Counted from the stretch's first letter, positions 16,717 to 36,799 are shown. The stretch: 64,000 nucleotides of DNA from a bacterium (GCA_021813945.1 JAKAJD010000002.1:173936-237935); one strand, 5' to 3'. Made by a program: numbers and translations. The notes: generated by a model from the letters alone, not told the origin.

Positions 16717-16751
16717 TTTAAATTAATTTTAAACAACAAAATCTCCATTAT

Positions 16752-18503
16752 CTAGTTTAGTTTAAAAATTCGAAAGGAATTATTCTGGAAAACAAGTCGA
16801 TAATTCCTCTCAAAAGCACTCACGTTCGCGTGCCAATCAAAAATAGCGGTTGGATCAACCACAACAAACTTTCCACTATAAGAATCAGCTATAAACTTCC
16901 AGACAACTGGATCAGAGTAAAACATTTTTAAGTCCTGCTCACGCTTTCCGTATTCAATGCCTCTTGTCCAAAGCCAACCTGGATATCCAACTAAAACGGG
17001 TCTTCCTGCAAGCGAGGATACAGGATTTAAATGACTCGAAGAGGTGATAATATTTTGGCCATATGGGAGATCATTTTTTATAAAATCGGCCATTTCAATT
17101 GCATCTGTATTAAAAATTATGGGAAGTTTTTCATTAGGAACTAAAAATCTGGGAATTTGATCGATGAAACCGGAAAAAGTTCCCAGGGTAAAAAACGCAA
17201 AAAACAAAATTGCCCCTAAAATTTTGCTATATTTCAAAAGCCAAACAAAAAAAGCTACAAATATAGGAGCTGCAAAAAACTGAAAATATACCAAAATTTT
17301 GTTATTGTCATAATCCCAAGGCTGGAATCTTACGAGCTGTACCGCCAAAAATAGCGTTGCTCCGCATAACCACCACCAGCCAATACCTTTAAATTGCAAC
17401 TTGAAACTGCGATGCCCGAAAACTATAAGGAATCCACCAATAATAAATATTGGAAGAACCACGCCAAAGTTTAAAATGAGAAAGTTGAAAAAGGGAAGGA
17501 TCGAACCGCCCAAAAATCCGCTTCGGGCATCAAATTTTATCGATCCGATTGTTGGTTCAACCATCCAACCGAGCCTAAATTTCAGAAATGATCCCCCAGA
17601 AATTGCTGACGTGTTCCCTTGGAGTAAATAAATAATTTGCGGTCCTGCGATTAAAAATATTAATGTTCCCAGAATCGCAAGTCTTCGAACTAACTCAGCA
17701 TTTTTCCTAACTATTGCCAAAATTCCCGTAACAGCAAGTATCAACCCCATTGCAATGAAAGTGTGGAAATGGCCTAAAGGGCCGATTCCAACAATAAGCC
17801 CCAAAATTATTGTCTTAATGTTGTTTTTCGGATTGCGTAACCAACTTTCTAAAACTAGCATGAATAGCGCGAAATCAAGTATTCCAAAGAAAAATGACCT
17901 TTGATGAAGTAAAACCAATGAAAGTGGTGCTCCCCATCCAATATTCTGGTTAGGAAATACAGCATCATATCTAGTAATCGTTGAAGCTGTCGTATTAACG
18001 AGATAGTTTATGAATCCTTCGAAACTATGATTTGCGTAAGTACCCAGATAATTTTGAAAATGCCAGTTTGCCCCGAAACCCGATCCGAAAAGAAAAATAA
18101 TAACTGCCAAAACTGCGGCCCAACCAGATTTCAAAAATTTTCTATAAATTAAAAAGGTTATTATTGTCGCAAGTGACATAAAAGTCATTGCAGGAAACTG
18201 CAGGGCAAAATACCATCTTCCGGTAGATTGCAGTATAAACCCGCTTATTAAATTGATTAAGAACGAATACCTCATCCGCTCACCTGTAAAAATTGGTTCG
18301 TTAAAATCGATCTTTTTCTCGAAGGCAAATTTTGAAACCTCAGTCATATGAAAAGGGATATCACCATAACCTGCAGCGGCAGCCCGCATGTTTCCTTGTT
18401 TATCTATCAAGAAGGTTTTTGAAATCAAAAAAAGGTGAAACAATATTACCAAAGATAAAACAAAAAAAGGCCCCCAAGAAATTCTAGAAATTGACCACTT
18501 CAT
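16752..18503 (-). CDS. Large polytopic membrane protein, putative GT-C glycosyltransferase
   Basis: 583 aa with >12 TM segments. Tandem with the two PMT-like genes. Confidence 0.5.
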   Translation of the reverse strand: MKWSISRISWGPFFVLSLVILFHLFLISKTFLIDKQGNMRAAAAGYGDIPFHMTEVSKFAFEKKIDFNEPIFTGERMRYSFLINLISGFILQSTGRWYFALQFPAMTFMSLATIITFLIYRKFLKSGWAAVLAVIIFLFGSGFGANWHFQNYLGTYANHSFEGFINYLVNTTASTITRYDAVFPNQNIGWGAPLSLVLLHQRSFFFGILDFALFMLVLESWLRNPKNNIKTIILGLIVGIGPLGHFHTFIAMGLILAVTGILAIVRKNAELVRRLAILGTLIFLIAGPQIIYLLQGNTSAISGGSFLKFRLGWMVEPTIGSIKFDARSGFLGGSILPFFNFLILNFGVVLPIFIIGGFLIVFGHRSFKLQFKGIGWWWLCGATLFLAVQLVRFQPWDYDNNKILVYFQFFAAPIFVAFFVWLLKYSKILGAILFFAFFTLGTFSGFIDQIPRFLVPNEKLPIIFNTDAIEMADFIKNDLPYGQNIITSSSHLNPVSSLAGRPVLVGYPGWLWTRGIEYGKREQDLKMFYSDPVVWKFIADSYSGKFVVVDPTAIFDWHANVSAFERNYRLVFQNNSFRIFKLN

Positions 18504-20596: not shown

Positions 20597-20599
20597 TAT

Positions 20600-20955
20600 G
20601 CTTCTGGGAAGGGAATAAGCCAGATTCTGTATTAACGATCATCTGTCTCAAAATGACGCTTTGCCACTTTGCCCCGCTTTAGGCGGGATGCCCCTATTTA
20701 GAACCTTCCGGAAACTTGGTTTGCGGTTCATTTCTGGGTTGCAGCAGTCAGGATTGCCCGTTTCACACCTACTCGTCTCTGTTGCTCTCCCAAAAGGTTA
20801 ATTCCCTTCAGGTTTTAAAAGCCGCATATAGGTAAAGCTTTTAAAAACTAGCGCTTACACGTCGGAACTTACGTCCCGTGACTTGTTTCCTGCTGTCTGG
20901 ACTTTCCTCTCCTCGCTATTACAGGTGAAGAGCGACCGTTTTCTTCCCAGAAGCG
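20600..20955 (-). ncRNA. rnpB: RNase P RNA, bacterial type A
   Basis: This ~430-nt stretch has no ORF. The minus-strand reading contains GAGGAAAGTCCAGAC (P4/CR-I GGAAAGUCCGGGC), GCAACAGAGA, AAATAGGGG and ACAGAATCTGGCTTAT (CR-V ACAGAACCCGGCUUA). A 12-bp P1 pairs CGCTTCTGGGAAG (5') with CTTCCCAGAAGC (3'). Confidence 0.85.
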
Positions 20956-21032
20956 AAGCAAATTTTACCAAAAATCAGCATATTTCTCAAGTTAAATTGA
21001 CTATTTGTCAAAAAAGTGCCGATAATATATAA

Positions 21033-21224
21033 ATGGCGAAAAAGGCTAAGACTTTGCTTAAGAAAAATGTACTTTCTAGATCACTTATTGGTCTAACGCT
21101 TGTAATTGCACTAGTTGCAGGCTTTGAAGCTGTAACACAAAATGATTTTACAACCCTAGCCCCGACCCAACTATTTGTCGTTGCGGCTGTTTTCGGAATA
21201 CTCGGCCTCTACACAAAAGAGTAG
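21033..21224 (+). CDS. Small hypothetical membrane protein (63 aa)
   Basis: Single TM-like segment. Weak support. Confidence 0.25.
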   Translation: MAKKAKTLLKKNVLSRSLIGLTLVIALVAGFEAVTQNDFTTLAPTQLFVVAAVFGILGLYTKE

Positions 21225-21280
21225 GACTTGGAATGTCCATCTCTCTAAGGTAAACTTACACTACAAATCTGCTCAAACGT

Positions 21281-21973
21281 ATGCCAAAAAAAATACCTAT
21301 TGTAGTTTTAATTGGCGGAGGTTCAAAATTACCGGCCCTTATTCAAGCAGCAAAAGAAAAGACGAGTAAATTTGAAATAAAACTCGTCGTAAGCCACAAA
21401 GCTTTTTCTCCGGGAATAGAGATTGCCTTAAAAAATAAAATTCCAGCAGTATATTTTAATTTACCAAACTTTAGAAAAAGACTTTTTGCAGGCGACCAAA
21501 AAGGAAAAATTGATTATCAAAAAAACTTAGGCTGGTTCATAAGTCAGGATCAATATGCACCTGAACTTTTGGTTTTTGCTGGTTGGGATTTGATATTGGA
21601 CAGAAACTTCTTCGATTTCTTCAAGTGCAGCTTTGGAAACGGTTTTGCAGCCATAAATCTTCATCCAGCAATTTTACCCAAAAAACAAGAAGGTCAAAAT
21701 ATAAAAATGCCTGATGGTGAAATGACACCAATCATTAAGGGAGAGCAATCAGAGGTTTTACAAGAAGTATTAAAACAAAAACTTTCCTATTTTGGCCCTA
21801 CCGTACATTTTATGGATGCTGAAGGATACGACACTGGTGAAATAGTTGAAAGGGAATTTATAAAAGTTGGAGATGCTAAAACTATTGAAGATCTAAGAAA
21901 AAAGCTTATGCCCGTCGAAGACAGAATTCTCATCTCATCAATAAATAAAGTCATAGATAAATACCTCTTATGA
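21281..21973 (+). CDS. purN: Phosphoribosylglycinamide formyltransferase (with an internal insertion)
   Basis: Formyltransferase motif AINLHPAILP (cf. NIHPSLLP). N-terminal IVVLIGGGSKL. First gene of the pur cluster. Confidence 0.75.
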   Translation: MPKKIPIVVLIGGGSKLPALIQAAKEKTSKFEIKLVVSHKAFSPGIEIALKNKIPAVYFNLPNFRKRLFAGDQKGKIDYQKNLGWFISQDQYAPELLVFAGWDLILDRNFFDFFKCSFGNGFAAINLHPAILPKKQEGQNIKMPDGEMTPIIKGEQSEVLQEVLKQKLSYFGPTVHFMDAEGYDTGEIVEREFIKVGDAKTIEDLRKKLMPVEDRILISSINKVIDKYLL

Positions 21974-23271
21974 TAAAAAAAACCGTTTTGGTAGTAGATG
22001 GCGGCGGCAGGGGATCTGCACTTGTTAAAAAATATTTGCAAAGCAAATCGGTAGGGCAAGTTTTAGCAACCCCGGGTAATGATTTAATGCTTCTTGATAA
22101 AAAAGTCAAAGTTTTTCCAAATGTTAAAACTACGGATGCCCAGAAAATTCTCAAAATCTGCATAGCCGAGAAAGTTAATCTAGTTGATGTAGCACAAGAC
22201 AATGCAGTTGAGGCAGGTGTCACAAATCTCCTTTTAAAAAATCACGTCTATGTTTTTGGCCCGACAAAAGAAGCAGGACAAATCGAATGGGATAAGTCAT
22301 GGTCTAAAAATTTCATGAAAAAATACAAAATTCCGACTGCAAAATTTAATGTTTTCAATTCCGAAAAGGCTGGTATTGACTTCATCAAAAACCAAAAAAA
22401 CTCGAAATGGTATGTAAAAGCATCAGGCCTAGCAGCAGGTAAGGGTGCTATCTTTGCTTCGAATAATAAAGAAGCGGTCAGTGCTATCAAAGAAATAAAA
22501 AATTTCGGTAAGGCAGGGGATACTTACGTTATTGAGCAGTGTTTAGAGGGTGAGGAATTTTCATCATTTGCTGCAGTTTCTGGTCAAAATTTTCTGATTT
22601 TGGGCCACGCCCAAGACCATAAAACGGTTTTCGATAATAATCAGGGACCAAATACCGGAGGGATGGGTTGTTCGTCTCCACCATTGGTAATAACTTCAAA
22701 AATCGAGAAACAAATTACGGATATATTTAAAAAAACAGTTAACGGACTAGTCAAAGAAAAACGGCCATACTTTGGGATTTTATATTTAGGCGGCATTATA
22801 GAAAAAAATGGAAAACTAAAAGTCATTGAATTTAACGCAAGATGGGGTGATCCGGAGGCGCAAGTTATAGTACCTTCATTAAAAAACGATTTTTATGATT
22901 TGGCAAAAAAAGTAATAGAAGGCAATATAAAAAAGATAAAAATCGAAAGGGAAAAGGGTTACAAAGTAGCGGTAGCTGCCGCCTCTAAAGGGTATCCTAA
23001 TGACTACCAAAACGTTATTGGCAAAAAGATTGTGGGTCTTGAAAAAATTCTCAAATTAAAAAACGTTGAAATTTTCGGAGCCGGCGTCAAAAAATTAGGG
23101 AAAAATTTTCTTGCGTCTGGCGGTCGGCTTTTTTATGTTATGGCAACCGGGAAGAATGTTGCAGAAGCTAGAAAAAAAGCCTATAATGCCCTCTCTTTAG
23201 TTTCTATTGCCGGTGGAAATTTGCATTATCGCCGTGATATAGGCTACAGAGATCTTAAAAGAATCGAATGA
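21970..23271 (+). CDS. purD: Phosphoribosylamine-glycine ligase
   Basis: 433-aa ATP-grasp protein with the PurD N/A/C domain order (LVVDGGGRGSAL…). Confidence 0.9.
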   Translation: MIKKTVLVVDGGGRGSALVKKYLQSKSVGQVLATPGNDLMLLDKKVKVFPNVKTTDAQKILKICIAEKVNLVDVAQDNAVEAGVTNLLLKNHVYVFGPTKEAGQIEWDKSWSKNFMKKYKIPTAKFNVFNSEKAGIDFIKNQKNSKWYVKASGLAAGKGAIFASNNKEAVSAIKEIKNFGKAGDTYVIEQCLEGEEFSSFAAVSGQNFLILGHAQDHKTVFDNNQGPNTGGMGCSSPPLVITSKIEKQITDIFKKTVNGLVKEKRPYFGILYLGGIIEKNGKLKVIEFNARWGDPEAQVIVPSLKNDFYDLAKKVIEGNIKKIKIEREKGYKVAVAAASKGYPNDYQNVIGKKIVGLEKILKLKNVEIFGAGVKKLGKNFLASGGRLFYVMATGKNVAEARKKAYNALSLVSIAGGNLHYRRDIGYRDLKRIE

Positions 23272-26096
23272 TTTTTGAAGTTAGGGTTAAATCAAAAGCA
23301 GAAACAGACGCAAAAGGTGAAGCACTTCTTGCGGAAATTAAAAAGACATTAAATATTCACTCAATCGGAAAAATCCAGAGCGCCAAAGTTTATCGCCTCG
23401 AAAATATAAAAAAAGAAGATTTAATAAAATTCTCTAAAATTGCTCTTTACGAAGAAATAGACCAAATAGCAACATACAATAAACCGATTTTTCCAAAAAC
23501 TGCAAAAGTATTGGAAGTTGCCTATAAACCCGGTGTTATGAATCCGGAAGTAGCTTCTATTTTAAAAGTCTCAAACGATTTAAAGATTAAGATAGAAGCC
23601 TGTGATTCTTCTTGGGAATATGCTTTTTTCGGCCCTGTCTCAAAATCTCAAATTGAAAAAATAACTAAAAGGTTGTTGGTCAACGACACAGTTGAAACTT
23701 TAGTCAAGCAGGTTCCCAAAACTTTAAAAATTTCAGGCACTGCTCAAAAAGTTCAAATAATTCCAATCCGTTCATTCAATAATCAGCAACTGATGGATTT
23801 ATCTCGGGACAAATTATTTTTAAATCTTGAAGAGATGAAAGTCATCCAAAGCTATTTTGCGAAAATAAAAAGAGACCCAACTGATTGTGAACTGGAAACT
23901 CTTGCACTTACCTGGTCCGAGCATTGCGGTCACAAAACATTCCGAGCAAAATTAACTATCGACGGCAAACAAAAGGAATCGTTTATTTCTCGCATTAAAA
24001 AAACGGCCAAAAATAATCAAAAATTAATTGTTAGCGCTTTCGATGACAATTCTGGTGTTATAGATTTCTATGATGGCTGGGCGATATCTGGAAAAGTCGA
24101 AACACATAATTCTCCATCTGCAATCGAACCATACGGAGGTGCGATGACAGGTTCCGGCGGCGTATTTCGCGATATTTTGGGAACAGGCCAGGGTGCAAAA
24201 CCGGTTGTCTCAACTGACGTTTTCTGTTTCGCTCCGCCTGATTTGGCCGCCAAAGATCTTCCCCCAGGCTGTCTGCCACCGGAATATTTACTTCGAAAGG
24301 TTGTTTATGGCGTCAGGGATTACGGCAATAGGGTCGGGATTCCAACCAACAACGGATCAATACACTTTCATCAAGACTTTCGTGCCAAACCGACAGTTGC
24401 TGTCGGATCTTTCGGCTTAATAGAAAAATCAAAAGCAAAAAAGGGCAAACCAAAATTGGGCAATTTAATTTTAACTTTAGGTGGTGCAACAGGCCGCGAC
24501 GGAATCCATGGCGCAACATTCGCATCCGGAGAAATGACAGATAGAACAATTAACGTTTCAGGATCTGCAGTCCAAATCGGAAATGCAATTGAAGAAAAGA
24601 GGCTTATCGATGCGATTTTAAGGCTTAAAGAAGAAAATCTTATCTGCGCGATAACGGATTGCGGGGCGGGCGGATATGCATCGGCAATCGGCGAAATGGC
24701 CAAAGAAACTGGAGCTGAAGTTTATCTAGATAAGGTCCCTCTTAAATACACAAATCTTGCCCCATGGGAAATTTTCCTTTCCGAATCGCAGGAACGAATG
24801 GTACTTGCAATTAATCCAAAAGATCTTAAAAAAGTTCAAAAGATTTGTGAAACGTACAATGTTCCAAATAATGTAATCGGGAAGTTTACCTCTAACAAAA
24901 AACTGATTATTTATTATCAAAAACAAATAGTATGCAACTTATCTATGGATTTCCTTCACGACGGCCTTCCTCAACGGAAAATGATTGGTAAAACAAAGTC
25001 AAAATACCAGAATAATAAAATTAGGAAAAATTCAAAACCAATTAATATCGAAAAAATTTGGCAAAAAGTTATGGCTCATGGAAATGTGTGTTCAAAGGAA
25101 CCAATAGTTAGAATGTATGACCATAATGTCCAAGGAACCGCGGCGCTCCATCCTTTTTCCGGCCAAAATTTTGACGGCCCAAACGACGGCGCAGTGATCC
25201 GTCCAATTCTGGCTAAACCTTATGGTCTCATCATCACCCACGGTTTGAATCCGCAGCTCAATTCCATAGACCCTTATTTGGGAAGCGTTTGGGCAATTAT
25301 GGAAGCGGTTGCTAACTTTGTCTCAATCGGAGGAAACCTGAAAGACGCGGCCTTAGTGGATAATTTTATTTGGCCTTTTCCTGACGAGGAATCATTAGCA
25401 GATCTGGATAAATCTGTCGATGCCTGCCTGGATATGGCGAATCTTTTGAAGATGCCATTTGTTTCGGGAAAAGATTCCCTTTCCTCAACTTACAGATACC
25501 CCACGGGCAAAGTATTAAAAATCCCTCCCGTCCTTTTGATTTCTGTTTTTGGAAAAATTCCCGACGTTTCGAAAACAGGAAGTTCCGATTTTAAAAAAGT
25601 CGGATCAACCATAGTTTTAGTTGGTAAAGGAGATTTCGGAAATCTTGGCGGCTCAGCATATTTTGATGCCATAAAATCAGAAAGCAGCAATATTCCAAAA
25701 CCGGATCTCTCATCAGCCACCAAAGTTTTCTCATCAATAACTTCGGGAATCAAATCATCAAAAATTCTTTCATGTCATGACATTTCCGAAGGTGGTTTAG
25801 CAACAGCACTTGCGGAGATGTGCTTCGGCGGAAATTGCGGTGCTGAAATATCAATCAAAGGTTTCAAATATCCAGATCATCAAATATTATTTTCCGAAAC
25901 ACCCGGCACATTTCTAGTCGAAGTGGAAAATGAAAAAGCAGCCAAAAAACTTTTTGCAAAAGTACCTAATACAATTTTAGGCAAAACCATTAAGTCAGAC
26001 ACAATCATAGTTAAAGGCTCAAAAACAATAAAGGTTAGTGCCAGCTCATTAAAAAACTCCTGGCAAAAACCGATGAAAGAGGTGTTTAATGGTTAA
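23268..26096 (+). CDS. purL: Phosphoribosylformylglycinamidine synthase, PurS-PurL fusion
   Basis: 942 aa. The N-terminal ~80 aa (MIFEVRVKSKAETDAKGEALLAEIK…) are a PurS-like ferredoxin fold. The rest is small-type PurL with duplicated AIRS domains (…SHNSPSAIEPYGGAMTGSGGVFRD…). Confidence 0.9.
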   Translation: MIFEVRVKSKAETDAKGEALLAEIKKTLNIHSIGKIQSAKVYRLENIKKEDLIKFSKIALYEEIDQIATYNKPIFPKTAKVLEVAYKPGVMNPEVASILKVSNDLKIKIEACDSSWEYAFFGPVSKSQIEKITKRLLVNDTVETLVKQVPKTLKISGTAQKVQIIPIRSFNNQQLMDLSRDKLFLNLEEMKVIQSYFAKIKRDPTDCELETLALTWSEHCGHKTFRAKLTIDGKQKESFISRIKKTAKNNQKLIVSAFDDNSGVIDFYDGWAISGKVETHNSPSAIEPYGGAMTGSGGVFRDILGTGQGAKPVVSTDVFCFAPPDLAAKDLPPGCLPPEYLLRKVVYGVRDYGNRVGIPTNNGSIHFHQDFRAKPTVAVGSFGLIEKSKAKKGKPKLGNLILTLGGATGRDGIHGATFASGEMTDRTINVSGSAVQIGNAIEEKRLIDAILRLKEENLICAITDCGAGGYASAIGEMAKETGAEVYLDKVPLKYTNLAPWEIFLSESQERMVLAINPKDLKKVQKICETYNVPNNVIGKFTSNKKLIIYYQKQIVCNLSMDFLHDGLPQRKMIGKTKSKYQNNKIRKNSKPINIEKIWQKVMAHGNVCSKEPIVRMYDHNVQGTAALHPFSGQNFDGPNDGAVIRPILAKPYGLIITHGLNPQLNSIDPYLGSVWAIMEAVANFVSIGGNLKDAALVDNFIWPFPDEESLADLDKSVDACLDMANLLKMPFVSGKDSLSSTYRYPTGKVLKIPPVLLISVFGKIPDVSKTGSSDFKKVGSTIVLVGKGDFGNLGGSAYFDAIKSESSNIPKPDLSSATKVFSSITSGIKSSKILSCHDISEGGLATALAEMCFGGNCGAEISIKGFKYPDHQILFSETPGTFLVEVENEKAAKKLFAKVPNTILGKTIKSDTIIVKGSKTIKVSASSLKNSWQKPMKEVFNG

Positions 26097-26862
26097 ACCA
26101 AATGTTTGCATCCTAAGATCCGACGGCGCAAATTGCGACGAAGAACTATATTATGCTTTTGAAAAATTTGGTGCCAAACCCCAACTTGTTCACGTAAACG
26201 AACTTCGCAATAAGTCTAAAAAACTCAAGAATTTCCAAATACTGGCTCTTCCCGGCGGTTTCTCATATGGTGATGATATTGCCAGCGGCAAGGTGTTGGC
26301 AATCGAACTTGTAAGTTTCTTGGGAGAAGAAATCCGAAATTTTGTCGCAAAAAAAGGTTTAGTTTTAGGAATTTGTAACGGTTTTCAAACTTTGGTCAGG
26401 ACGGGTCTTTTGCCATTTAACAATTTTGGCAAAATGGACGTGACTTTAGCCCAAAACGACAGCGGCCATTTTGAATGTCGATGGGTAAAAATTAAAAACG
26501 AAAAAAGCAAATGCGCATTTTTAAATCATAAGGATCCAATCGATATTGCGGTAAATCACGGTGAAGGAAAATTCTATGCTGACCAGAAAACAATCAAAAA
26601 AATCGAAGACGAAAACTTGGTCGTTTTCCGATACATCAACAGTCAAGGCAAACCCACACAAAAATACCCGGAAAATCCTAACGGATCAATTAACGCTATT
26701 GCAGGCGTGTGTGATCCGACTGGTAGAATTCTTGGCATGATGCCACATCCGGAAAAATTTATAAACATCACTCAACACCCAAACTGGCGCCGCCAAAAAT
26801 TCACAAAACCCCACGGGGCATTTATTTTCGAAGATCTGATTTCGTATGCAAAGAAAAATTAA
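26089..26862 (+). CDS. purQ: Phosphoribosylformylglycinamidine synthase glutaminase subunit
   Basis: Class-I GATase with …LALPGGFSYGDD…GICNGFQ…MPHPE…. Confidence 0.9.
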   Translation: MVKPNVCILRSDGANCDEELYYAFEKFGAKPQLVHVNELRNKSKKLKNFQILALPGGFSYGDDIASGKVLAIELVSFLGEEIRNFVAKKGLVLGICNGFQTLVRTGLLPFNNFGKMDVTLAQNDSGHFECRWVKIKNEKSKCAFLNHKDPIDIAVNHGEGKFYADQKTIKKIEDENLVVFRYINSQGKPTQKYPENPNGSINAIAGVCDPTGRILGMMPHPEKFINITQHPNWRRQKFTKPHGAFIFEDLISYAKKN

Positions 26863-27739
26863 TAAACTGAAATCGCTAAAATCTACGCGCTTAATCACGA
26901 TGGAAGCGCTCTATCAGGCGTTGAAAAAAGTTTTAGTAGAAAATAAACCTGTGTCAGAAATAGATTTAAAGAAAGAATGGCTAAAGGAACTTCAAAAAAG
27001 TAGGGAAATATTTAAGAATGGTTGGTATGTTCCTCCACCCAATGGAATTGCAATCATATTTGCTCAAGACAATAAACCCAAAAGAACACAATTTCGCAGC
27101 CTTCGTTTTAAAGAAAATTTTCCTCAAAACAACATATTTCTGGACAAAAACAGAGGCATTATGATTCTCTATGCTTCTCCGGTTAGCAAAAAGACAGGAA
27201 TTATCGGAGATTTTGGACTTACATTATATTTTGGGAGTGCGCCTGAAGTGACAAAGCACATTAAAAATATCTTGAGTATACAAAAAAAAGTTTTTAACTA
27301 TGCAAAGCTAGGTATGTCTTTTTCTACGCTCTACAAATATGCAGACGGGCTTTTTAAGAAAAATAGTTTATCAAACGATTGGTGGCTTAATGTAACTGAT
27401 CCATCCGGTAGAAATATGGGACACACATCTCCTTCAACAGAAAAAGACTGGAGCGACAAAGAATATAAACTTCTAAATAATGCTAATAAAAATTGGAAAA
27501 ATACAGCTACTATGATCAGCAAAAGAAGGATATTTTTTAGCCCAAAAGAAAAATCAGTAATAAAAAAAGGACTTGCATTTTCCATCGAAAGCAGATTAAA
27601 AAAAGTTGGTGATCCGAATTTTCCAGTAGTATGGTTTCACTCTGTGGCAATTTTCCAAAAAAGCGGTAAAAAAGAATTCTTGACAAACTTTGATAAATTA
27701 TTCAAACTGGCTGGGATGAATTACGCGCTTAATTATTAA
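26846..27739 (+). CDS. Hypothetical protein inside the pur operon (possibly a degenerate M24/pita-bread-like protein)
   Basis: 297-aa ORF translationally coupled between purQ and purM. No confident family. There is weak resemblance to the creatinase/prolidase fold (…SGRNMGHTSP…). Confidence 0.4.
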   Translation: MQRKINKLKSLKSTRLITMEALYQALKKVLVENKPVSEIDLKKEWLKELQKSREIFKNGWYVPPPNGIAIIFAQDNKPKRTQFRSLRFKENFPQNNIFLDKNRGIMILYASPVSKKTGIIGDFGLTLYFGSAPEVTKHIKNILSIQKKVFNYAKLGMSFSTLYKYADGLFKKNSLSNDWWLNVTDPSGRNMGHTSPSTEKDWSDKEYKLLNNANKNWKNTATMISKRRIFFSPKEKSVIKKGLAFSIESRLKKVGDPNFPVVWFHSVAIFQKSGKKEFLTNFDKLFKLAGMNYALNY

Positions 27740-27742
27740 AAT

Positions 27743-28837
27743 ATGAAAAAAATTTCTTACAGCAAAGTTGGAGACAACTACGACACAAAAGATCCAATTA
27801 AAAAATTGGCGCAAGTTGCAGCGCGTCAAACGAAAATTAGCGAAGCAGATTTTAAAGAAATAACCGACACTAGAGGAGAATCGGCTTTTGTCTGGCAGCA
27901 AGGAGCGGCTTTAATGGCGTCTGTAGTTGAGGGTTTGGGAACAAAAAATCTCGTTGCAGATGAAATGAGAAAAATAACTGGCAAAACTTATTACGACGTA
28001 ATCGGTTACGATACCGTTGCGACAATTATTAACGACCTGATAACGGTTGGCGCAAAGCCAAGAGTGGTTCACGCATATTGGGCTATTGAAGACAACGGTT
28101 GGCTTCAAGACACTGAAAGGATGACAGATTTTATAAAAGGATGGAAAGATGCCTGTCAGGTTTCGATGGCCGTATGGGGCGGAGGAGAAACGCCAACATT
28201 AAAAGGAATAGTTGAAAAAAACACTGTTGATTTAGGCGGCTCCGCAATCGGCGTTATAAAAAATCCAAAAAATTTAATTACAGATAGAAAACTAAAATCA
28301 GGGGATAGAATTCTACTTTTTAAATCAAACGGTATTAATTGCAATGGTTTGTCGCTTGCTCGGGCAGTTGCCAAAAAACTAAAAAACGGTTACGGTGAAA
28401 AATTATCAAACGGCCAAACGTATGGAGAATCAATTCTCACAAAAACAAATATTTATGCAAAGCTAATACAAGATTTACTCTCAGCCGGTATAGATATTCA
28501 TTACATATCCAATATCACAGGTCACGGACTTAGAAAAATCATGCGGGCTCGCGGTAACTTTACTTATGTAATTGAAAAACTTTTTAACCCTCAGGAAATA
28601 TTTTTATTCATCCAAAAGCACGCAAATTTAACGGATGATGAAATATACCAAACCTTAAATATGGGCCAAGACTATGCAATCTTCATCGACAAAAAAGACG
28701 TCAAAAAAACGCAAGACATAGTCAAAAAAAACAAATTTGAATCAATTGATGCTGGGTATATCGAGTCAGGACCACGTCAAGTAATCATCAAACCCAAAAA
28801 AATTAAATTTTCATCAGAATCACTAGATTTAAGATGA
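27743..28837 (+). CDS. purM: Phosphoribosylformylglycinamidine cyclo-ligase (AIR synthase, PurM family) with an N-terminal extension
   Basis: Motifs EGLGTKNLV, NDLITVGAKP and WGGGETPTLKGIV match PurM GxGTK / DLxxxGAEP / GGETAEMPG. Confidence 0.7.
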   Translation: MKKISYSKVGDNYDTKDPIKKLAQVAARQTKISEADFKEITDTRGESAFVWQQGAALMASVVEGLGTKNLVADEMRKITGKTYYDVIGYDTVATIINDLITVGAKPRVVHAYWAIEDNGWLQDTERMTDFIKGWKDACQVSMAVWGGGETPTLKGIVEKNTVDLGGSAIGVIKNPKNLITDRKLKSGDRILLFKSNGINCNGLSLARAVAKKLKNGYGEKLSNGQTYGESILTKTNIYAKLIQDLLSAGIDIHYISNITGHGLRKIMRARGNFTYVIEKLFNPQEIFLFIQKHANLTDDEIYQTLNMGQDYAIFIDKKDVKKTQDIVKKNKFESIDAGYIESGPRQVIIKPKKIKFSSESLDLR

Positions 28838-29091
28838 GTGAGACATTAATAGAAGAAATAGAGACAATAAAAGAACGTAATAAGAGGGTGGAAAAAGACA
28901 AAGCCTGGGAAACAAGTTGGACGAGAAAAACTGCGATTGCAGTAACAACCTACATTTTAATTACAATTTTTCTAATAATCATCAAGGTCGAAAAACCATT
29001 TCTTTCCGCAATAATACCGGCTATTGCCTATCTCGTTTCAACGGCTTCACTAGGAATCCTCAAAGACTGGTGGCTTAAAAACCAAAAATAA
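28834..29091 (+). CDS. Small hypothetical membrane protein (85 aa, 2 TM)
   Basis: ORF overlapping the purM stop by 4 nt. Hydrophobic core. Confidence 0.3.
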   Translation: MSETLIEEIETIKERNKRVEKDKAWETSWTRKTAIAVTTYILITIFLIIIKVEKPFLSAIIPAIAYLVSTASLGILKDWWLKNQK

Positions 29092-29133
29092 AATTCATTT
29101 GACTTTCGTATTTACTTCGGGTATACCTAGCCC

Positions 29134-30393
29134 ATGGATTTGTTCGACGAAAACCAAAAAGAATTTGCGCCGCTTGCGGACCGTATGCGTCCTAAAAACC
29201 TTGAACAATTCGCAGGGCAAAAACATTTGGTATCACAAGGAAAAATTTTAGAAAAAGCAATCAAAGAAGACAAATTGTTTTCCATGATATTTTGGGGACC
29301 ACCCGGATCTGGAAAAACTACCCTTGCAAGAATCATCGCCTCCGAAACTAAATCCAATTTTGTTCCAATTTCTGCAGTTACATCCAATGTGGCGGAAATT
29401 AAAAAAATTATTCAAAGCGCTCAAGACACTCAAAAGCTACAAAAGCAAAGGACCATTCTCTTTATCGACGAAATCCACCGCTTCAATAAAGCGCAACAGG
29501 ATGTTTTACTTCCTCACGTCGAACGAGGAACAATCACCTTAATCGGCGCGACAACCGAAAATCCCTCATTTGAAGTGATTGGTGCTTTACTTTCAAGGTC
29601 CCGCGTTTTAAAACTAGAATCACTCTCCGAAGAAGATCTCGAAAAAATAATCAAAAGCTCTCTAAAGAATAAAACCGAGGGACTCGGCAAACAAAAAATC
29701 AAAATAGATAAAAAAGCGCTTGATTTTTTAATTTCTCAATCAAACGGAGATGCAAGGTTTGCCCTTAACACTCTCGAAATTGCATCTTCGCAGATTAAGA
29801 GTCAGTCCACTCTAAAAATGGAAAACTTCACAAGCGCTCTCCAAAGGCACACAACTTTTTACGACAAAAAAGGGGATTACCATTACGATACAATTTCTGC
29901 CTACATCAAAAGCATGCGGGCAGGAAAAACTGATGCAGCACTTCATTATTTGGCGCGAATGATTGAAGCAGGAGAGGATCCGGTTTTTATCGCCCGCCGC
30001 ATGGTGATTTTTGCCTCAGAAGACATCGGCAACGCAATGCCCACTGCTTTGGTTATTGCAACTTCTGCAATGCAGGCAGTCCATATGGTTGGCATGCCTG
30101 AATCAACTTTAATTCTTTCACACGTCACGTCATATTTATCGGAAGCCCCAAAAAGTATTGCTTCAACGACCGCAATTTCAAAGGCTCTTTCTGATATCAA
30201 AAATATTCCCCTCGATCCAATCCCTCTGCACTTAAGAAATGCACCGACAAAAATGATGAAAGAAATGGGGTACGGAAAAGGTCATATTCGCTATCCATGG
30301 ATGGACGAAAACAGCGACAAAAAAATTCTGGAATATATGCCAAAAAATCTCATCGGTAAAAAATATTATCAGGATCCAAGAAAGAAAAAATAA
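29134..30393 (+). CDS. rarA: Replication-associated recombination protein A (AAA+ ATPase RarA/MgsA)
   Basis: Walker A FWGPPGSGKTTLARI, Walker B ILFIDEIHRFNK, and the MgsA C-terminal helical domain. Confidence 0.9.
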   Translation: MDLFDENQKEFAPLADRMRPKNLEQFAGQKHLVSQGKILEKAIKEDKLFSMIFWGPPGSGKTTLARIIASETKSNFVPISAVTSNVAEIKKIIQSAQDTQKLQKQRTILFIDEIHRFNKAQQDVLLPHVERGTITLIGATTENPSFEVIGALLSRSRVLKLESLSEEDLEKIIKSSLKNKTEGLGKQKIKIDKKALDFLISQSNGDARFALNTLEIASSQIKSQSTLKMENFTSALQRHTTFYDKKGDYHYDTISAYIKSMRAGKTDAALHYLARMIEAGEDPVFIARRMVIFASEDIGNAMPTALVIATSAMQAVHMVGMPESTLILSHVTSYLSEAPKSIASTTAISKALSDIKNIPLDPIPLHLRNAPTKMMKEMGYGKGHIRYPWMDENSDKKILEYMPKNLIGKKYYQDPRKKK

Positions 30394-30433
30394 TTTTTTT
30401 GCATTTTCTTAAAGTATCCTATATAATTCCACA

Positions 30434-31447
30434 ATGGAGGCCCGAAAAGTCTACAAAATTGCAACACTGGGTTCTCACTCCGCGCTACAAATCTTAAAAG
30501 GCGCAAAAGACGAAGGCTTCAAAACAATTTGCATCGCAATCCCTGATCGAGTTTCTCTTTATTCACGCTTCTCTTTTATTGACAAAATAATAGAAATTAA
30601 AAAATATACCGATTTTCCAAAGATAGAAAATCAACTAATTTCAGAAAATACAATAATTATTCCGCACGGTTCTTTCGTCGCATATTTAGGAGTTGAAAAT
30701 AACAAAAAAATGAAAGTCCCCTATTACGGAAATAAAAAAGTTCTGGATTGGGAGTCCGACAGAAAAATGCAAAGGGAATGGCTTGTAAAAGCTCAAATTC
30801 CTGTTCCAAAAAGGTTTAAAAAAGGTGAAAAAATAGATAGACCGGTTATCGTCAAATCATACGGTGCCGCCGGTGGTAATGGATACTTTTTCGCCAAAAA
30901 TCAAAAAGATTTTGATAAAAGGATAAAGGTCTTCAAACCAAAAGATTTTATAGTTCAGGAATACGTTATTGGAGTTCCACTTTATATACATTATTTTTAC
31001 TCACCAATTTCAAAAAAATTAGAAATTTTATCAATAGATAAACGTTACGAGTCGAACGTCGATTCTTTAGGCAGAATTCCATCACAAAATCAGCAAGGCT
31101 TAGGCATCGAACCGTCATTTGTCGTTGTCGGAAATTCCCCGCTGACTCTCAGGGAATCACTCTTAGCCGAGGCGTTTGAAATGGGAGAAAGAGCAGTCGC
31201 TAAATCACAAGAATTAATTCCCGGCGGACTCTGGGGCCCGTTTTGTCTAGAGACAATAATAACTCCGGAGCAAAAATTTTCAATAATTGAGATTTCCTGT
31301 CGAATTGTAGCCGGAACAAATTTATTTATTAATGGATCACCATATGCTGCCTTATATTGGGATAAAGAAGTGTCAACAGGCCGAAGAATCGCGATGGAAA
31401 TTAAAGAGGCAATTAAAAAAGATCAATTAAGAAAAATCTTAAATTAA
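30434..31447 (+). CDS. purP: 5-formaminoimidazole-4-carboxamide ribonucleotide (FAICAR) synthetase PurP-like, ATP-grasp (archaeal-type)
   Basis: N-terminal IATLGSHSALQIL is the PurP hallmark, with a DUF1246/DUF1297-like organisation. Confidence 0.7.
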   Translation: MEARKVYKIATLGSHSALQILKGAKDEGFKTICIAIPDRVSLYSRFSFIDKIIEIKKYTDFPKIENQLISENTIIIPHGSFVAYLGVENNKKMKVPYYGNKKVLDWESDRKMQREWLVKAQIPVPKRFKKGEKIDRPVIVKSYGAAGGNGYFFAKNQKDFDKRIKVFKPKDFIVQEYVIGVPLYIHYFYSPISKKLEILSIDKRYESNVDSLGRIPSQNQQGLGIEPSFVVVGNSPLTLRESLLAEAFEMGERAVAKSQELIPGGLWGPFCLETIITPEQKFSIIEISCRIVAGTNLFINGSPYAALYWDKEVSTGRRIAMEIKEAIKKDQLRKILN

Positions 31448-31448
31448 C

Positions 31449-32720
31449 ATGGCAAAGTTAAACAAATGGCATGGAACAGCGGCAGTAATAGGGATCGATT
31501 GGGGTGATTCCGGAAAAGGCCGGTTAATTGATGATCTGTCCCAAAATGCGAATGTAATTGCCCGCTTCAACGGTGGTTCAAACACTGGCCACACTGTTTC
31601 AAATAAATTCGGAAAATTTGCGATGCATATAACACCTTCCGGAATTTTTAATCAAAAAGCAACGTGCCTTGTCGGTCGCAACGTTGCGGTCAACCTGGAA
31701 GTGCTAATTCAAGAGCTGGACTCATTCAAAAAAGCCGGTGTTGCTTTTAAAAATTTGGTTATAGATGAGCAAGCGCCTTTGACGATGCCTTGGCATATTT
31801 TACGGGATGGCATCAGGGAAAAAGTCCGTAAATCAAAAATCGGCACAACCGGAAATGGGGTGGGACCTACGTATGCAGACTACACGGAAAGAGTTGGGTT
31901 AAAAGTTATCGATTTATTATCAAGCGATCTAAAAGAAAAAATTTACAATGAAGCCGAAATTCAAAATAAATTTTTTAATCTTAAGATTTCACCAAATGAT
32001 GTATATTCGAAGTTTTCAAAATACTCAAAAGTTATAAAACCTTATGTTGGAAATACAATACAAATCATAAAACAAAATTTACAAAAAAATAAAAACATCC
32101 TTTTTGAAGGTGCCCAAGGCTACTTTTTAGATATCGATGCGGGAACTTACCCATTTGTAACATCGTCAAATCCCGGAGTTGTCGGAATTTGGAGATCTTA
32201 CGATTTACACCCGCAAAATTTAGACCATGTAATAGGAATCACCAAAGCTTACACAACTCGGGTCGGATCTGGTCCAATGCCAACCAAAATGGATGAGAAA
32301 ACTTCCAAACAAATTATCGAAAAAGGTCATGAAGTTGGAACTACAACCGGAAGGATCCGATCTCCCGGTTGGCAAGATTTAGTTCTTTTAAAATACGCGC
32401 ATGAAGCAAACCACCTTACAGCTCTTGCTATAACAAAATTGGATATCCTAAGCGGTCAAAAAAAGATCAAATTAGGCGTCGGGTATAAATTAAACGGCAA
32501 AGAAACAACATACTTGTCTCACAGTTCTGAATTTTTAGAAAACGTTCGGCCAGTTTATGAAGAATTTGAAGGGTGGCAGGAAGATATATCTAACGTTAGA
32601 GAATTTGAAAGGCTTCCTAAGAATGCTAAAAAATATATAGAGGCGATTGAGAAATTCACCAAAATTCCGGTTAAATTCATTTCAGTTGGCCCTAAAAGAG
32701 GTGAAGTAATTTATGTCTAA
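31449..32720 (+). CDS. purA: Adenylosuccinate synthetase
   Basis: GIDWGDSGKGRLID…FNGGSNTGHTV is the canonical PurA N-terminus. Confidence 0.9.
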   Translation: MAKLNKWHGTAAVIGIDWGDSGKGRLIDDLSQNANVIARFNGGSNTGHTVSNKFGKFAMHITPSGIFNQKATCLVGRNVAVNLEVLIQELDSFKKAGVAFKNLVIDEQAPLTMPWHILRDGIREKVRKSKIGTTGNGVGPTYADYTERVGLKVIDLLSSDLKEKIYNEAEIQNKFFNLKISPNDVYSKFSKYSKVIKPYVGNTIQIIKQNLQKNKNILFEGAQGYFLDIDAGTYPFVTSSNPGVVGIWRSYDLHPQNLDHVIGITKAYTTRVGSGPMPTKMDEKTSKQIIEKGHEVGTTTGRIRSPGWQDLVLLKYAHEANHLTALAITKLDILSGQKKIKLGVGYKLNGKETTYLSHSSEFLENVRPVYEEFEGWQEDISNVREFERLPKNAKKYIEAIEKFTKIPVKFISVGPKRGEVIYV

Positions 32721-33807
32721 GCCTAAAGATTACACAATTGCAGTAGTTGGTTCACACAGCGCCCTAGACATCTGTCGAGGAGCAAAGGATTTAGGTTTTA
32801 AAACTTTAGTCGTTGTTGAAAAAGGAAGAGACAAGACTTATGCCCAATATTTTAAAACAGATGGGGAATTGGGATGTGTCGATGAAGTTTTGGAGGTCGA
32901 AAAATTTAAAGATATTTTGGAACCTAAAAATCAGAAAACCTTAAAAGATAAAAATTCAATATTTATTCCTCACCGCTCATTCGAAGTTTATCTTAACGAT
33001 TACGACGCAATAGAAAAAGATTTTAAAGTACCTATGTTTGGCAATAAATATTTGCTCAGAATCGAGGAAAGGTATGTCAAACCAAACCAATATGATTTGT
33101 TAACTGAAGCTAAAATAAAATTCCCGAAGACATTTGATAATCCAAAGGAAATAGATCGTTTGGTTTTGGTAAAAGTCGCAGAACGTGAAAGGAAATTCGA
33201 AAGAGCATTTTTTCTAGCAAGCTCTCCAAAAGATTTTCAGATCGCTTCCGAAATATTAATTTTGGAAGGAAAAATTACAAAGGATGCCCTCGATGTTGCA
33301 GTAATTGAAGAATTTATTTTAGGGGTCCAAATTAATTTTAATTTCTTCTATTCACCTTTTACAAAAAGGGTAGAACTTGCCGGAACGGACACAAGAAGAC
33401 AGACCAACATAGACGGTCTCCTAAGACTTCCCGCTTTTTATCAAACTCAGCTGCAGGAATCAATACAAATCAAATATGAAGAGGCTGGTCACATCGCTGT
33501 AACTACCCTTGAATCAACGCTGGAACCAGCTTTTGAGATGGCAAACCGTTTTGTAGATGCCGCACGAAAATTATATCCTCCCGGAATAATCGGGCCGTTC
33601 GGGCTTCAATCGGTAATTACTGCGGGTCCACCCAAAAAAGAGATTGTGGTTTTCGATGTTTCACCCAGAATGCCTGGATCGCCGGGAATTTTTGCAACAC
33701 CTTATAGCGGTTATTTATATGGGGAGCCGATGAGTATGGGAAAAAGAGTGGCAATGGAAATAAAAAAAGCTATTGACCAAAATTCAATCGATAAAATTAC
33801 GACATGA
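32713..33807 (+). CDS. Second PurP-family ATP-grasp protein (paralog)
   Basis: IAVVGSHSALDICRGAKDLGFKT parallels the first PurP. 364 aa. Confidence 0.65.
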   Translation: MSKPKDYTIAVVGSHSALDICRGAKDLGFKTLVVVEKGRDKTYAQYFKTDGELGCVDEVLEVEKFKDILEPKNQKTLKDKNSIFIPHRSFEVYLNDYDAIEKDFKVPMFGNKYLLRIEERYVKPNQYDLLTEAKIKFPKTFDNPKEIDRLVLVKVAERERKFERAFFLASSPKDFQIASEILILEGKITKDALDVAVIEEFILGVQINFNFFYSPFTKRVELAGTDTRRQTNIDGLLRLPAFYQTQLQESIQIKYEEAGHIAVTTLESTLEPAFEMANRFVDAARKLYPPGIIGPFGLQSVITAGPPKKEIVVFDVSPRMPGSPGIFATPYSGYLYGEPMSMGKRVAMEIKKAIDQNSIDKITT

Positions 33808-35186
33808 AGACAAATTTTGATAATTACCAATCACCTTTTTCCTGGCGTTACGGATCGGACGAAATGCGCCAGCTTTTTTCTGAAGTCAATCGCCGAAAAA
33901 CATGGCGGCAAGTTTGGGTATCGTTAGCAAAGGCTCAAAATAAATTCGGTCTGATTTCTAAAAAAGAATTAAATGACATAATCAAACATCAAAATGTAAT
34001 AGATATCGAAAAAGCGCATCAAATCGAAAGCGAAATAAAACACGATTTAATGGCAGAGGTAAAAACGTATGCTTCACAAGCCAAAATCGGCGGAGGTAAG
34101 ATTCACCTCGGCGCAACTTCCCAAGATATAGAAGACAACGCGGATGCAATTATCTTTAAAGATGCACTCGCGATAATAGAAAAAAACTTAAACAAGCTTC
34201 TTAAAGTTTGGTTACTAAAAATCGACGAAAATAAAGATTTAGTTTGCATGGCCTACACACACCTGCAACCGGCTGAACCGACAACCTTAGGTTATCGGTT
34301 TTCACTATATGCGCAAGATTTACTCATTGATCTGGAATTATTAAATTACATAAAAACTCAAATAAAAGGAAAAGGAACAAAAGGAGCAGTAGGAAATTAC
34401 GCCAGCTATATGTCCCTGTTGGGATCTAAAACCGAAAACATGGAAGAAGCCGTTTTGAAAGATCTCGGCATCGAAGCTTTCGACATTACAGGACAAGTCT
34501 ACCCAAGAAAATTAGATTATTTAGTCTTATGTTTGCTGTCTTCTATCGCACAAAGCCTTTATAAATTCGCTTTCGATTTAAGAATTCTTCAGTCGGCACA
34601 GTTTGGAGAACTGGCGGAACCATTTGCCAAAAAACAAGTCGGTTCATCTGCGATGCCTTTTAAAAGAAATCCTCAGAACTCGGAAAGAATTTGTTCGCTC
34701 GCTCGTTACATTGTCGGTCTATCAAGAACTGCCTGGGACAACGCAGCAAATTCGCTTCTCGAGCGAACGCTCGACGATTCCGCAGCCAAAAGAATAATAA
34801 TTCCAGACAGCTTCTTGGCAACAGACGAAATATTAAAACTTACCTTATATATAGTTTCAGACATGGTAATAAACAAAAAGAACATTGAAAAAAACCTTAA
34901 ATCTTATGGACCATTTTCTGCACTCGAATCAATTCTTTTAAAAAGTGTTAAAAACGGTGCAAACCGACAGGAAATGCATGAAGTCCTCAGGGAGCATTCA
35001 ATGCGTGTCTACGATGAAATGGCTAAAACCGGCGAAAACAAATTGTTCCAGAATTTAAGCTACGATAAGACCATTTTAAAATATTTATCTAAATCTGAAA
35101 TTGATAGTCTCTCAAATTATAAAAAACATATAGGTCTTTCGGAAAAGAAATCAAGATCGATGATTTCAAAAATTAAAAATATTTAA
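33804..35186 (+). CDS. purB: Adenylosuccinate lyase
   Basis: Fumarate-lyase signature GSSAMPFKRNP and …GATSQDIEDNA…. Confidence 0.9.
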   Translation: MKTNFDNYQSPFSWRYGSDEMRQLFSEVNRRKTWRQVWVSLAKAQNKFGLISKKELNDIIKHQNVIDIEKAHQIESEIKHDLMAEVKTYASQAKIGGGKIHLGATSQDIEDNADAIIFKDALAIIEKNLNKLLKVWLLKIDENKDLVCMAYTHLQPAEPTTLGYRFSLYAQDLLIDLELLNYIKTQIKGKGTKGAVGNYASYMSLLGSKTENMEEAVLKDLGIEAFDITGQVYPRKLDYLVLCLLSSIAQSLYKFAFDLRILQSAQFGELAEPFAKKQVGSSAMPFKRNPQNSERICSLARYIVGLSRTAWDNAANSLLERTLDDSAAKRIIIPDSFLATDEILKLTLYIVSDMVINKKNIEKNLKSYGPFSALESILLKSVKNGANRQEMHEVLREHSMRVYDEMAKTGENKLFQNLSYDKTILKYLSKSEIDSLSNYKKHIGLSEKKSRSMISKIKNI

Positions 35187-35291
35187 AATGAAGAAAATAA
35201 TTTTGCCACTTCATAAATATGTAAAAACAATATACAATAGCAAAAATAATCCTGAACGACTTGCCCAAGATAACTGCCCTGTAAACTAAAT

Positions 35292-35834
35292 ATGGCAAAT
35301 CAAAAGAAAGTACGTCCGCAAGTAGGAATAATAATGGGCTCCGATTCGGATCTAGGGGTTATGTCTGATGCGGCAAAAATTTTAGACGAACTTAAGGTTC
35401 CGTATGAAGTATCTGTACTTTCTGCGCACAGAGCACCTTCGGAAACTAATGCTTATTCCGCCTCAGCACAAAAACGGGGTTTAAAGGTGATCATCGCCGG
35501 TGCGGGTGGTGCAGCAGCTTTGCCGGGTGTTGTGGCTTCGCAAACATTGTTACCAGTTGTAGGTGTTCCCATTAAGTCCAAAGCAGTAGAAGGATTAGAC
35601 GCTCTCCTTTCTATAAGTCAAATGCCTCCCGGAATTCCAGTTGCCACAGTTGGTATAGATTCGGCAAAAAATGCCGGAATTTTAGCAGCCGCAATTGTTG
35701 CCTTATCAAACAAAGAAGCAGCTAAAAAATTAGCAAATTACAAAAGCAGTTTAAAAAAACAAGTTCTTGTCAAAAATTCAGCTCTTAAAAAGCTTGGATG
35801 GTCCAAATATTTAAAAGGAAAAAATGCTAGATAA
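35292..35834 (+). CDS. purE: N5-carboxyaminoimidazole ribonucleotide mutase
   Basis: VGIIMGSDSDLGVM…VIIAGAGGAAALPGVVAS is a PurE hallmark. Confidence 0.9.
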   Translation: MANQKKVRPQVGIIMGSDSDLGVMSDAAKILDELKVPYEVSVLSAHRAPSETNAYSASAQKRGLKVIIAGAGGAAALPGVVASQTLLPVVGVPIKSKAVEGLDALLSISQMPPGIPVATVGIDSAKNAGILAAAIVALSNKEAAKKLANYKSSLKKQVLVKNSALKKLGWSKYLKGKNAR

Positions 35835-36795: not shown

Positions 36796-36799
36796 GATT

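Follow-up and report, generated by a model that had tools for sequence, protein, structure and literature searches.

The gene that we call M24X here is a 297-aa open reading frame (ORF) at 26846-27739 on the plus strand of the window, the 64-kb stretch of DNA that was analysed, where it lies between purQ and purM in a cluster of purine synthesis genes. The features of the locus are as follows.

21281-38320, plus strand: purine cluster, with purN, purD, purL, purQ, M24X, purM, orf85, rarA, purP-a, purA, purP-b, purB, purE, purC and guaA
26089-26862, plus strand: purQ, directly 5' of M24X in the ORF listing
26846-26862, plus strand: 17-nt overlap of the purQ stop region with the M24X start, giving translational coupling
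26846-27739, plus strand: M24X, ATG start, 297 aa, modelled as a pita-bread (M24/creatinase-fold) protein with one domain; its family is small and separate
27740-27745, plus strand: M24X-purM junction, a 3-nt spacer followed by the purM start codon
27743-28837, plus strand: purM (AIR synthetase; Pfam AIRS and AIRS_C, TIGR00878), the conserved partner of M24X

An earlier note on this DNA had described an ORF that overlaps purQ by 17 nt and ends 3 nt before purM, which the ORF listing and the sequence confirm exactly, and its placement of the ORF inside the purine operon, in the same orientation, is borne out by the gene map of the window. The 17-nt overlap with purQ recurs in two relatives, at 77% and 58% identity (L001 and L009), and in some others the M24X-purM junction is absent, the two genes forming a single ORF there. 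The purM product scores E 1.9e-53 and 181.8 bits against TIGR00878, under the curated cut-off of 236. Elsewhere in the cluster, purL carries a fused PurS/linker N-terminus, and orf85, after purM, is a small membrane ORF. Another gene caller starts M24X at an in-frame ATG at 26900 (P0001, 279 aa). We prefer the ATG at 26846 because residues 6-18 align with the homologues, at least 90% of which have Arg15. An Rfam scan found no riboswitch upstream of the purine operon, and scans for promoters and terminators gave matches no more numerous than in shuffled sequence.

Family, fold and active site of M24X

M24X has no match to a canonical Pur enzyme, as the earlier note had said. In Pfam it reaches only Peptidase_M24 (PF00557), at 19.9 bits where the gathering cut-off is 23, a search of NCBIfam gave no meaningful match, and a search of PDB sequences with the single protein gave a chance match only. 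A precomputed PF00557 match is present on some of its homologues. A word-indexed search returned 26 relatives (36-100% identity, E 1e-43 to 1e-182), one of them a 'hypothetical protein' of Candidatus Curtissbacteria, and a profile search run exhaustively against 1.84 billion representatives returned 297 representative clusters at E <= 1e-3. With only 297 clusters found, the family stands well apart from the very large M24 superfamily. Its main hosts are Patescibacteria (Microgenomates), and its members are publicly labelled 'hypothetical' or 'M24 family metallopeptidase'. The AlphaFold2 model of M24X has a mean pLDDT of 93.3 and a pTM of 0.91. Given this confident model, the close homologues and the profile clusters, M24X is a genuine gene and no chance reading frame. 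The fold, modelled with confidence, is that of the pita-bread (M24/creatinase) proteins. The earlier note had looked to structure prediction for an assignment; the prediction gave a fold that it had not foreseen, and this assignment holds only at the level of the fold and gives no function.

To place the metal ligands, we mapped M24X by profile alignment (hhalign, hmmsearch) onto Escherichia coli methionine aminopeptidase (MetAP) and Pyrococcus furiosus prolidase.

27170-27172, plus strand: codon of Tyr109, at MetAP D97 (the first Asp metal ligand) in a global hhalign alignment
27209-27211, plus strand: codon of Asp122, invariant, equivalent of MetAP D108
27422-27424, plus strand: codon of His193, in a GH motif, equivalent of MetAP H171
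27587-27589, plus strand: codon of Glu248, in a T-I-E-P-R motif, equivalent of MetAP E204
27638-27640, plus strand: codon of His265, at or beside the last Glu ligand (MetAP E235)

The five-ligand set of M24 enzymes (Asp, Asp, His, Glu, Glu) is thus incomplete, with two of the five replaced, by Tyr109 and His265; the position of MetAP E235 falls on His265 in two alignments and on Phe264 in one. Among the 49 family members examined, His265 is found in every one, and position 109 is Tyr or, in a few, Phe. The positions that hhalign places at the MetAP helper histidines H79 and H178 are variable and not His. Taken together, the ligand replacements and the loss of the helper histidines suggest loss of the second metal site, where aminopeptidases hold the N-terminal amine of the substrate; M24X would keep no more than a mononuclear Asp/His/Glu(/His) site. 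Similarity to the M24 metallopeptidases (MetAP, prolidase, aminopeptidase P) therefore amounts to a weak profile match, E 8e-5 in the case of P. furiosus prolidase, and three ligand positions in common, while the first Asp, the last Glu and the equivalents of H79 and H178 differ. A canonical MetAP is encoded in the same window (1069-1824, plus strand; 36% identity across 245 aa in tblastn, E 3e-46). Its alignment shows the full set of five metal ligands together with the two helper histidines, so M24X is not the housekeeping MetAP.

All 49 members keep R15, E38, W60, Y61, P63, P64, R80, R87, Y109, S111, D122, Y128, H193, R228, E248, R250, P260 and H265, apart from changes of R15 to Lys, Y109 to Phe and R250 to Gln, each in a few members. 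This set, some 20 residues with five Arg among them, is also present in an alignment of 135 sequences, and distant members in non-purine contexts hold it too. Judged from these sequences, it looks like a defined, Arg-rich pocket for a small ligand.

Association with purM

Loci of the family were gathered by exact-protein look-up, by a scan of GTDB genomes, one for each species (46 loci), and by a metagenome scan (80 loci), and neighbours were labelled by BLAST against the Pur proteins of the window and PurF, PurK, PurH and others. Collapsing at 90% identity left 103 non-redundant loci, of which 78 were informative once those with flanks too short were set aside.

M24X fused to PurM: 4 of 103 loci
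PurM the next gene to M24X: 34 of 103 loci
PurM one gene from M24X: 9 of 103 loci
Other pur gene within 2 genes of M24X: 15 of 103 loci
Pur gene farther off in the locus: 3 of 103 loci
No pur gene, flanks of 2.5 kb or more on each side: 13 of 103 loci
Flanks too short for judgement: 25 of 103 loci

M24X is therefore linked to purine genes in 65 of the 78 informative loci, and in 47 of these 65 PurM is fused to it, adjacent or one gene away. The gene upstream of M24X differs (purQ, purC, purD or purE) and the order is in some loci reversed or convergent. What stays constant is purM, usually the adjacent gene and translationally coupled to M24X. The earlier note had held that orthologues lying mostly outside purine contexts would speak against a role in the pathway. 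Since the opposite is found, the link to the pathway is favoured. By synteny across divergent genomes and by gene fusion, M24X is a component of the purine gene cluster.

The fusions were checked residue by residue. Four loci encode a single ORF of about 665 aa in which M24X comes first and is followed by a complete PurM.

L012, 10001-11998: M24X::PurM fusion ORF
L014, 1488-3491: M24X::PurM fusion ORF
L017, 10001-11868: M24X::PurM fusion ORF
L044, 10001-11989: M24X::PurM fusion ORF

The junction sequence of the M24X::PurM fusion reads '...GMDYMIEPMKKQKISY...'. A protein search with a fusion as query showed that such proteins (P0174-P0181, P0183, P0185-P0187), publicly labelled 'AIR synthase related protein', make up at least 12 distinct clusters at 90% identity, with identities to the query as low as 51% and linkers that differ. 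We also found a 1004-aa triple fusion, PurC::M24X::PurM (P0182), as well as a PurC::PurM fusion (P0282) and a GNAT::M24X fusion (P0168). The AlphaFold2 model of one fusion protein, computed as a monomer, has a pLDDT of 93.4 with both domains confident, and a pTM of 0.66, so that their mutual orientation is not fixed.

In a crude neighbor-joining tree, purM-linked members extend across the whole Patescibacteria part of the family, and enclose a few non-pur subclades. Members on the deepest branches (Actinobacteria, Clostridia, Alphaproteobacteria) lie mostly outside pur clusters, with the exception of Micavibrio, which has the order purL-purQ-M24X. Non-purine contexts are seen in L003, L019, L024, L025 and L030, among others. 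Neighbours of the distant members include RF2, DapD, a TrmB regulator, HhH-GPD, cyclodipeptide synthase (CDPS), radical SAM, carbamoyltransferase, MazF and LptE proteins, and the Nonomuraea locus is a radical-SAM/carbamoyltransferase/deformylase cluster; we found no common theme among the neighbours of these distant members. Only two contigs with M24X are labelled archaeal (L021 and the truncated L051), and both resemble CPR contigs.

To see how M24X relates to the canonical steps, we examined which of them share its clusters. Full-length bifunctional PurH occurs together with M24X in at least eight loci (L011, L012, L017, L020, L039, L044, L078 and L138), with the cyclohydrolase motifs SVxDK, RxK, NLYPF, DxGGP and AAAKN retained. 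PurK (Pfam PurK_C) is found with it in six (L004, L016, L017, L027, L044 and L138) and PurF in three (L008, L037 and L050), and M24X also co-occurs with PurN and PurP. Two clusters, L138 and L139, share the gene order purQ-purPa-purH-purPb-purB-purK-purE-purC-[...]-purM-corA-phosphorylase, where the bracket holds an EamA gene and M24X in L138 only. M24X is absent from L139, a sister cluster with a 72-78% identical PurM, and the L140 cluster likewise lacks it. A search with a fusion query at E <= 1e-60 found about 1,900 PurM relatives, as against about 300 M24X clusters; the PurM-only matches listed are 62-80% identical to the PurM part of the fusion. Given the sister clusters without M24X and its coexistence with the canonical steps, M24X is an optional accessory and no replacement for a missing step, a statement that holds at the level of the cluster, as a copy elsewhere in the genomes of L139 and L140 is possible.

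Candidate functions

Creatinase and ectoine hydrolase, the two characterised non-peptidase hydrolases of the pita-bread fold, cleave guanidine or amidine C-N bonds. FGAM is an amidine, and AIR is a cyclic amidine that is unstable and rearranges readily (Dimroth-type). Considering this precedent, the amidine nature of both substrate and product of PurM, the apparent loss of the peptide-amine site and the Arg-rich invariant pocket, we propose, tentatively, that M24X is a small-molecule C-N hydrolase acting with PurM at the FGAM/AIR node. The leaning towards a small molecule also takes into account that, purine genes aside, the specific neighbour seen most often is a HAD hydrolase of the beta-phosphoglucomutase family, which frequently sits between M24X and purM. 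M24X would pair with PurM as a hydrolase of amide or amidine bonds, using a site that is mononuclear or, as in creatinase, free of metal. Its substrate would be an anionic, probably phosphoribosyl, compound at this node, and the enzyme may clear or recycle an off-pathway by-product of the labile intermediates, making it an accessory or housecleaning activity and no eleventh obligatory step. A fuller version, possible but rather doubtful, is that many candidate-phyla bacteria have an extra dedicated purine enzyme, a pita-bread hydrolase complexed with AIR synthetase that repairs or recycles an FGAM/AIR by-product formed by rearrangement or faulty cyclisation, or that carries out an ATP-independent reaction beside the PurM step.

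Three observations weigh against parts of this proposal. Thirteen loci with sufficient flanks have no purine gene close by, and the invariant residues are retained by distant members from Actinobacteria, Clostridia and Alphaproteobacteria whose contexts are unrelated, so the chemistry need not be specific to purines. Recurrent neighbours that act on protein N-termini favour a peptidase, and the monomer model of the fusion predicts no fixed domain interface.

Among the closest known systems is creatinase (EC 3.5.3.3), the C-terminal pita-bread domain of which M24X resembles in having no complete two-metal site. In creatinase, which is metal-independent, the last three ligand positions are occupied by His, Glu and His, a pattern that His193, Glu248 and His265 of M24X would fit in two alignments; a third is shifted by one residue. 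Identity is only 11%, and M24X differs in keeping Asp122 at the second ligand position, in its own invariant Arg/Tyr set, in its context of purine synthesis instead of creatine degradation, and in having, within its 297 aa, no Pfam match to the Creatinase_N domain. Ectoine hydrolase (DoeA/EutD, EC 3.5.4.44) is likewise 11% identical, belongs to an unrelated pathway and has an N-terminal domain of its own that is missing in M24X.

The proposal has two serious rivals. One, which we consider unlikely, is that M24X acts as a specialised peptidase and might, for instance, trim the N-termini of proteins or peptides. It could mature a Pur enzyme such as PurF, which needs an exposed N-terminal Cys, or could free Gly, Gln or Asp from peptides for purines in amino-acid-auxotrophic CPR cells. 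The fold and the weak sequence similarity to M24 peptidases agree with this, and the PurF of L008 starts with an 8-residue leader ahead of the catalytic Cys. Several recurrent neighbours also favour it: peptide deformylase (Pep_deformylase; L017/L077, L042, L128), a divergent pyroglutamyl-peptidase-like (Peptidase_C15-like) gene between M24X and purM (L011, L018, L020 and others), GNAT acetyltransferase (L035, L084/85, L088, L123, L127, and the fusion P0168), a small aspartyl protease (L005, L128) and the CDPS that adjoins M24X in L036. However, M24X has neither helper histidine of the M24 peptidases and only three of their five metal ligands, the organism already has a canonical MetAP, and M24X is linked to purM, not to purF. 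A 1:1 in-frame fusion with PurM is hard to square with a general peptidase, and the five invariant Arg residues suggest a small anionic substrate.

The other rival, which we rate as improbable to a similar degree, is that M24X is a non-catalytic partner of PurM, a regulatory, ligand-binding pseudo-peptidase that scaffolds PurC and PurM or senses a metabolite. The degenerate metal site, the placement of M24X between PurC and PurM in P0182, the 12 or more clusters of proteins in which it is fused to PurM, and its dispensability in the sister clusters are all consistent with such a role, for which pseudo-peptidases provide precedents. These precedents (the Spt16 N-domain, Ebp1/PA2G4 and Arx1) are eukaryotic chromatin and ribosome factors, whereas M24X keeps a strictly invariant polar pocket. 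Retention of Asp122, His193, Glu248, His265, Tyr109, Tyr128 and the five Arg residues across the family looks like a catalytic site or a tight ligand pocket; moreover, the family persists with the same residues where purM is not nearby, and AlphaFold2 predicts no fixed interface in the fusion (pTM 0.66).

Missing steps and significance

The earlier note had suggested that M24X might supply a missing step, as a non-orthologous IMP cyclohydrolase or as a replacement for PurK or PurF. The window does lack such genes: tblastn found no purH, purK or purF in its 64 kb (with E. coli PurH as query, neither domain), and it holds two purP paralogues. The IMP cyclohydrolase of PurP-using archaea is still unidentified (PMC6797443, PMC3261824, PMC6486802), and a third type has long been posited for them (PMC6797443, PMC3261824). 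The pita-bread fold is known, in ectoine hydrolase, to open and close cyclic amidine rings, chemistry that would fit M24X as the enzyme that completes a PurP-type pathway by converting FAICAR to IMP. We nevertheless regard this as very unlikely. Intact PurH shares clusters with M24X, the presence of M24X is independent of PurP, it is fused to PurM and PurC and not to PurP, and it is missing from L139, where the order purPa-purH-purPb is the same. The same active site also occurs in Actinobacteria outside pur clusters, and the only archaeal-labelled contigs are CPR-like. With the known cyclohydrolases, PurH2/PurJ (MGS-like fold) and PurO (Ntn fold), M24X shares just its pathway setting and the reaction type first proposed for it; there is no relation in fold or sequence, and intact PurH2 domains coexist with it. 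On the strength of co-occurrence and of the M24X-less L139 we reject M24X as a substitute for IMP cyclohydrolase, PurK or PurF. For PurK (as an ATP-independent aid to AIR carboxylation) or PurF, the idea is scarcely credible: most M24X clusters have purE without an adjacent purK, M24X sits among purE, purC and purM, and PurC::M24X::PurM would then span consecutive steps, but bona fide PurK accompanies M24X in six loci and PurF in three, and we know of no precedent for either reaction in a hydrolase fold. That the two PurP paralogues jointly replace PurH is only partly tenable, as the PurP pair occupies the PurH slot in L004 and L005, yet purPa, purH and purPb stand together in L078, L138 and L139.

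Literature searches found nothing on the M24X family or on pita-bread/M24 proteins in purine clusters, nothing relevant on an IMP cyclohydrolase newly identified since 2019, and nothing relevant on the rearrangement of AIR. The pita-bread fold is known; what is new is the remodelling of its active site and its recruitment to PurM.

For the open question of the long-sought third IMP cyclohydrolase, the M24X family provides a clean negative. PurP has been described as archaea-specific; it is common in Patescibacteria, which matters for reconstructing their metabolism. The purine pathway is among the best studied in biochemistry, its enzymes are drug and herbicide targets, and to our knowledge de novo purine synthesis is regarded as a fully enumerated textbook pathway. 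An extra protein repeatedly kept by PurM, and once joined to both PurM and PurC, suggests that the labile FGAM/AIR step may involve chemistry or quality control that is hidden in model organisms. If the fuller version of our proposal is true, M24X would be the first metabolite-proofreading activity assigned to de novo purine synthesis.

PurP paralogues and the purH position

The purine cluster carries two PurP paralogues, purPa and purPb, both on the plus strand:

30434-31447, plus strand, formate-dependent FAICAR synthetase (DUF1246/DUF1297)
32713-33807, plus strand, formate-dependent FAICAR synthetase (DUF1246/DUF1297)

The genome is bacterial, from the Patescibacteria; a 2019 survey of complete genomes, in contrast, reported PurP from Archaea alone (PMC6486802). 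Using tblastn across the window (1-64000), we found no PurH-type (AICARFT/IMPCH), PurK or PurF genes, despite the clustering of the remaining purine pathway genes there. Among the homologous loci in related genomes and metagenomes (numbered with the prefix L), the purP pair occupies the purH slot between purQ and purB in L004 and L005. The pair instead flanks purH, in the order purPa-purH-purPb, in L078, L138 and L139, and L044 has purH together with only the b paralogue. In L139, a related Patescibacteria genome, a reverse transcriptase gene (RVT_1) adjoins a bAvd gene approximately 5 kb from the purine cluster (15495-16884), an arrangement that suggests a diversity-generating retroelement.

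Other genes and RNA elements in the window

Two further genes lie inside the purine cluster downstream of purM, and a canonical methionine aminopeptidase is encoded elsewhere in the window:

28834-29091, plus strand, 85-amino-acid ORF overlapping the purM stop
29134-30393, plus strand, rarA/mgsA-type gene for an AAA+ recombination-associated ATPase, in the middle of the cluster
1069-1824, plus strand, canonical methionine aminopeptidase

The 85-amino-acid ORF (28834-29091) had no family match, and its small product is predicted to form two hydrophobic helices; it is kept at the equivalent position in L001, L009/L058 and L064. The rarA/mgsA-type gene appears to be split or frameshifted in L001, a close relative. 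The aminopeptidase retains all five of five metal ligands and is 36% identical to E. coli MetAP. Three RNA elements matched Rfam models at gathering score:

53000-53100, plus strand, SAM riboswitch (56.4 bits)
55215-55286, minus strand, DUF3800-IX sRNA motif (60 bits)
7951-8021, minus strand, one tRNA

Upstream of the purine cluster, where an intergenic region of about 685 nucleotides is found (20597-21280), Rfam identified no riboswitch.

Recurrent neighbors of M24X in related loci

In several lineages, a divergent pyroglutamyl-peptidase-like gene is located between purM and the gene for M24X, the pita-bread-fold protein (L011:10881-11537, L018:10138-10539, L020:9386-10042; also L061, L066, L079, L082 and L087). 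Its Peptidase_C15 matches have E-values of 1e-7 to 1e-11, far under the NCBIfam cut-offs. Tandem M24X paralogues of 314 and 295 amino acids precede purM in L084 (688-2994) and L085, in both cases separated by a GNAT acetyltransferase gene; GNAT also adjoins M24X in L035/L127, L088 and L123, and is fused to it in protein P0168. A beta-phosphoglucomutase-family HAD hydrolase recurs in these purine clusters, often immediately after M24X (L009:5003-5668; many others, including L005, L006, L013, L016, L058, L069, L070, L076, L080 and L095), and could be a phosphatase or phosphomutase for ribose phosphate or a ribotide. Separately, a Clostridiales metagenome-assembled genome has a 52-residue M24X-like fragment (38% identity) between purE/purC and purH (L055:10001-10141); this fragment could be what is left of a gene, or the similarity could be due to chance.

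Fusions of purine enzymes

The purL product begins with a PurS-like/linker region of about 180 amino acids, fused to the FGAM synthetase domains, and no separate purS gene was seen:

23268-26096, plus strand, purL (942 amino acids)

Further purine-enzyme fusions, PurE::PurC and PurC::PurM, occur in relatives (L012:6995-8497, L018:7700-9208, L060, L079 and L082; protein P0282), the former resembling eukaryotic PAICS. Together, the PurE::PurC and PurC::PurM fusions suggest that these small genomes have a general tendency to weld pathway enzymes together.
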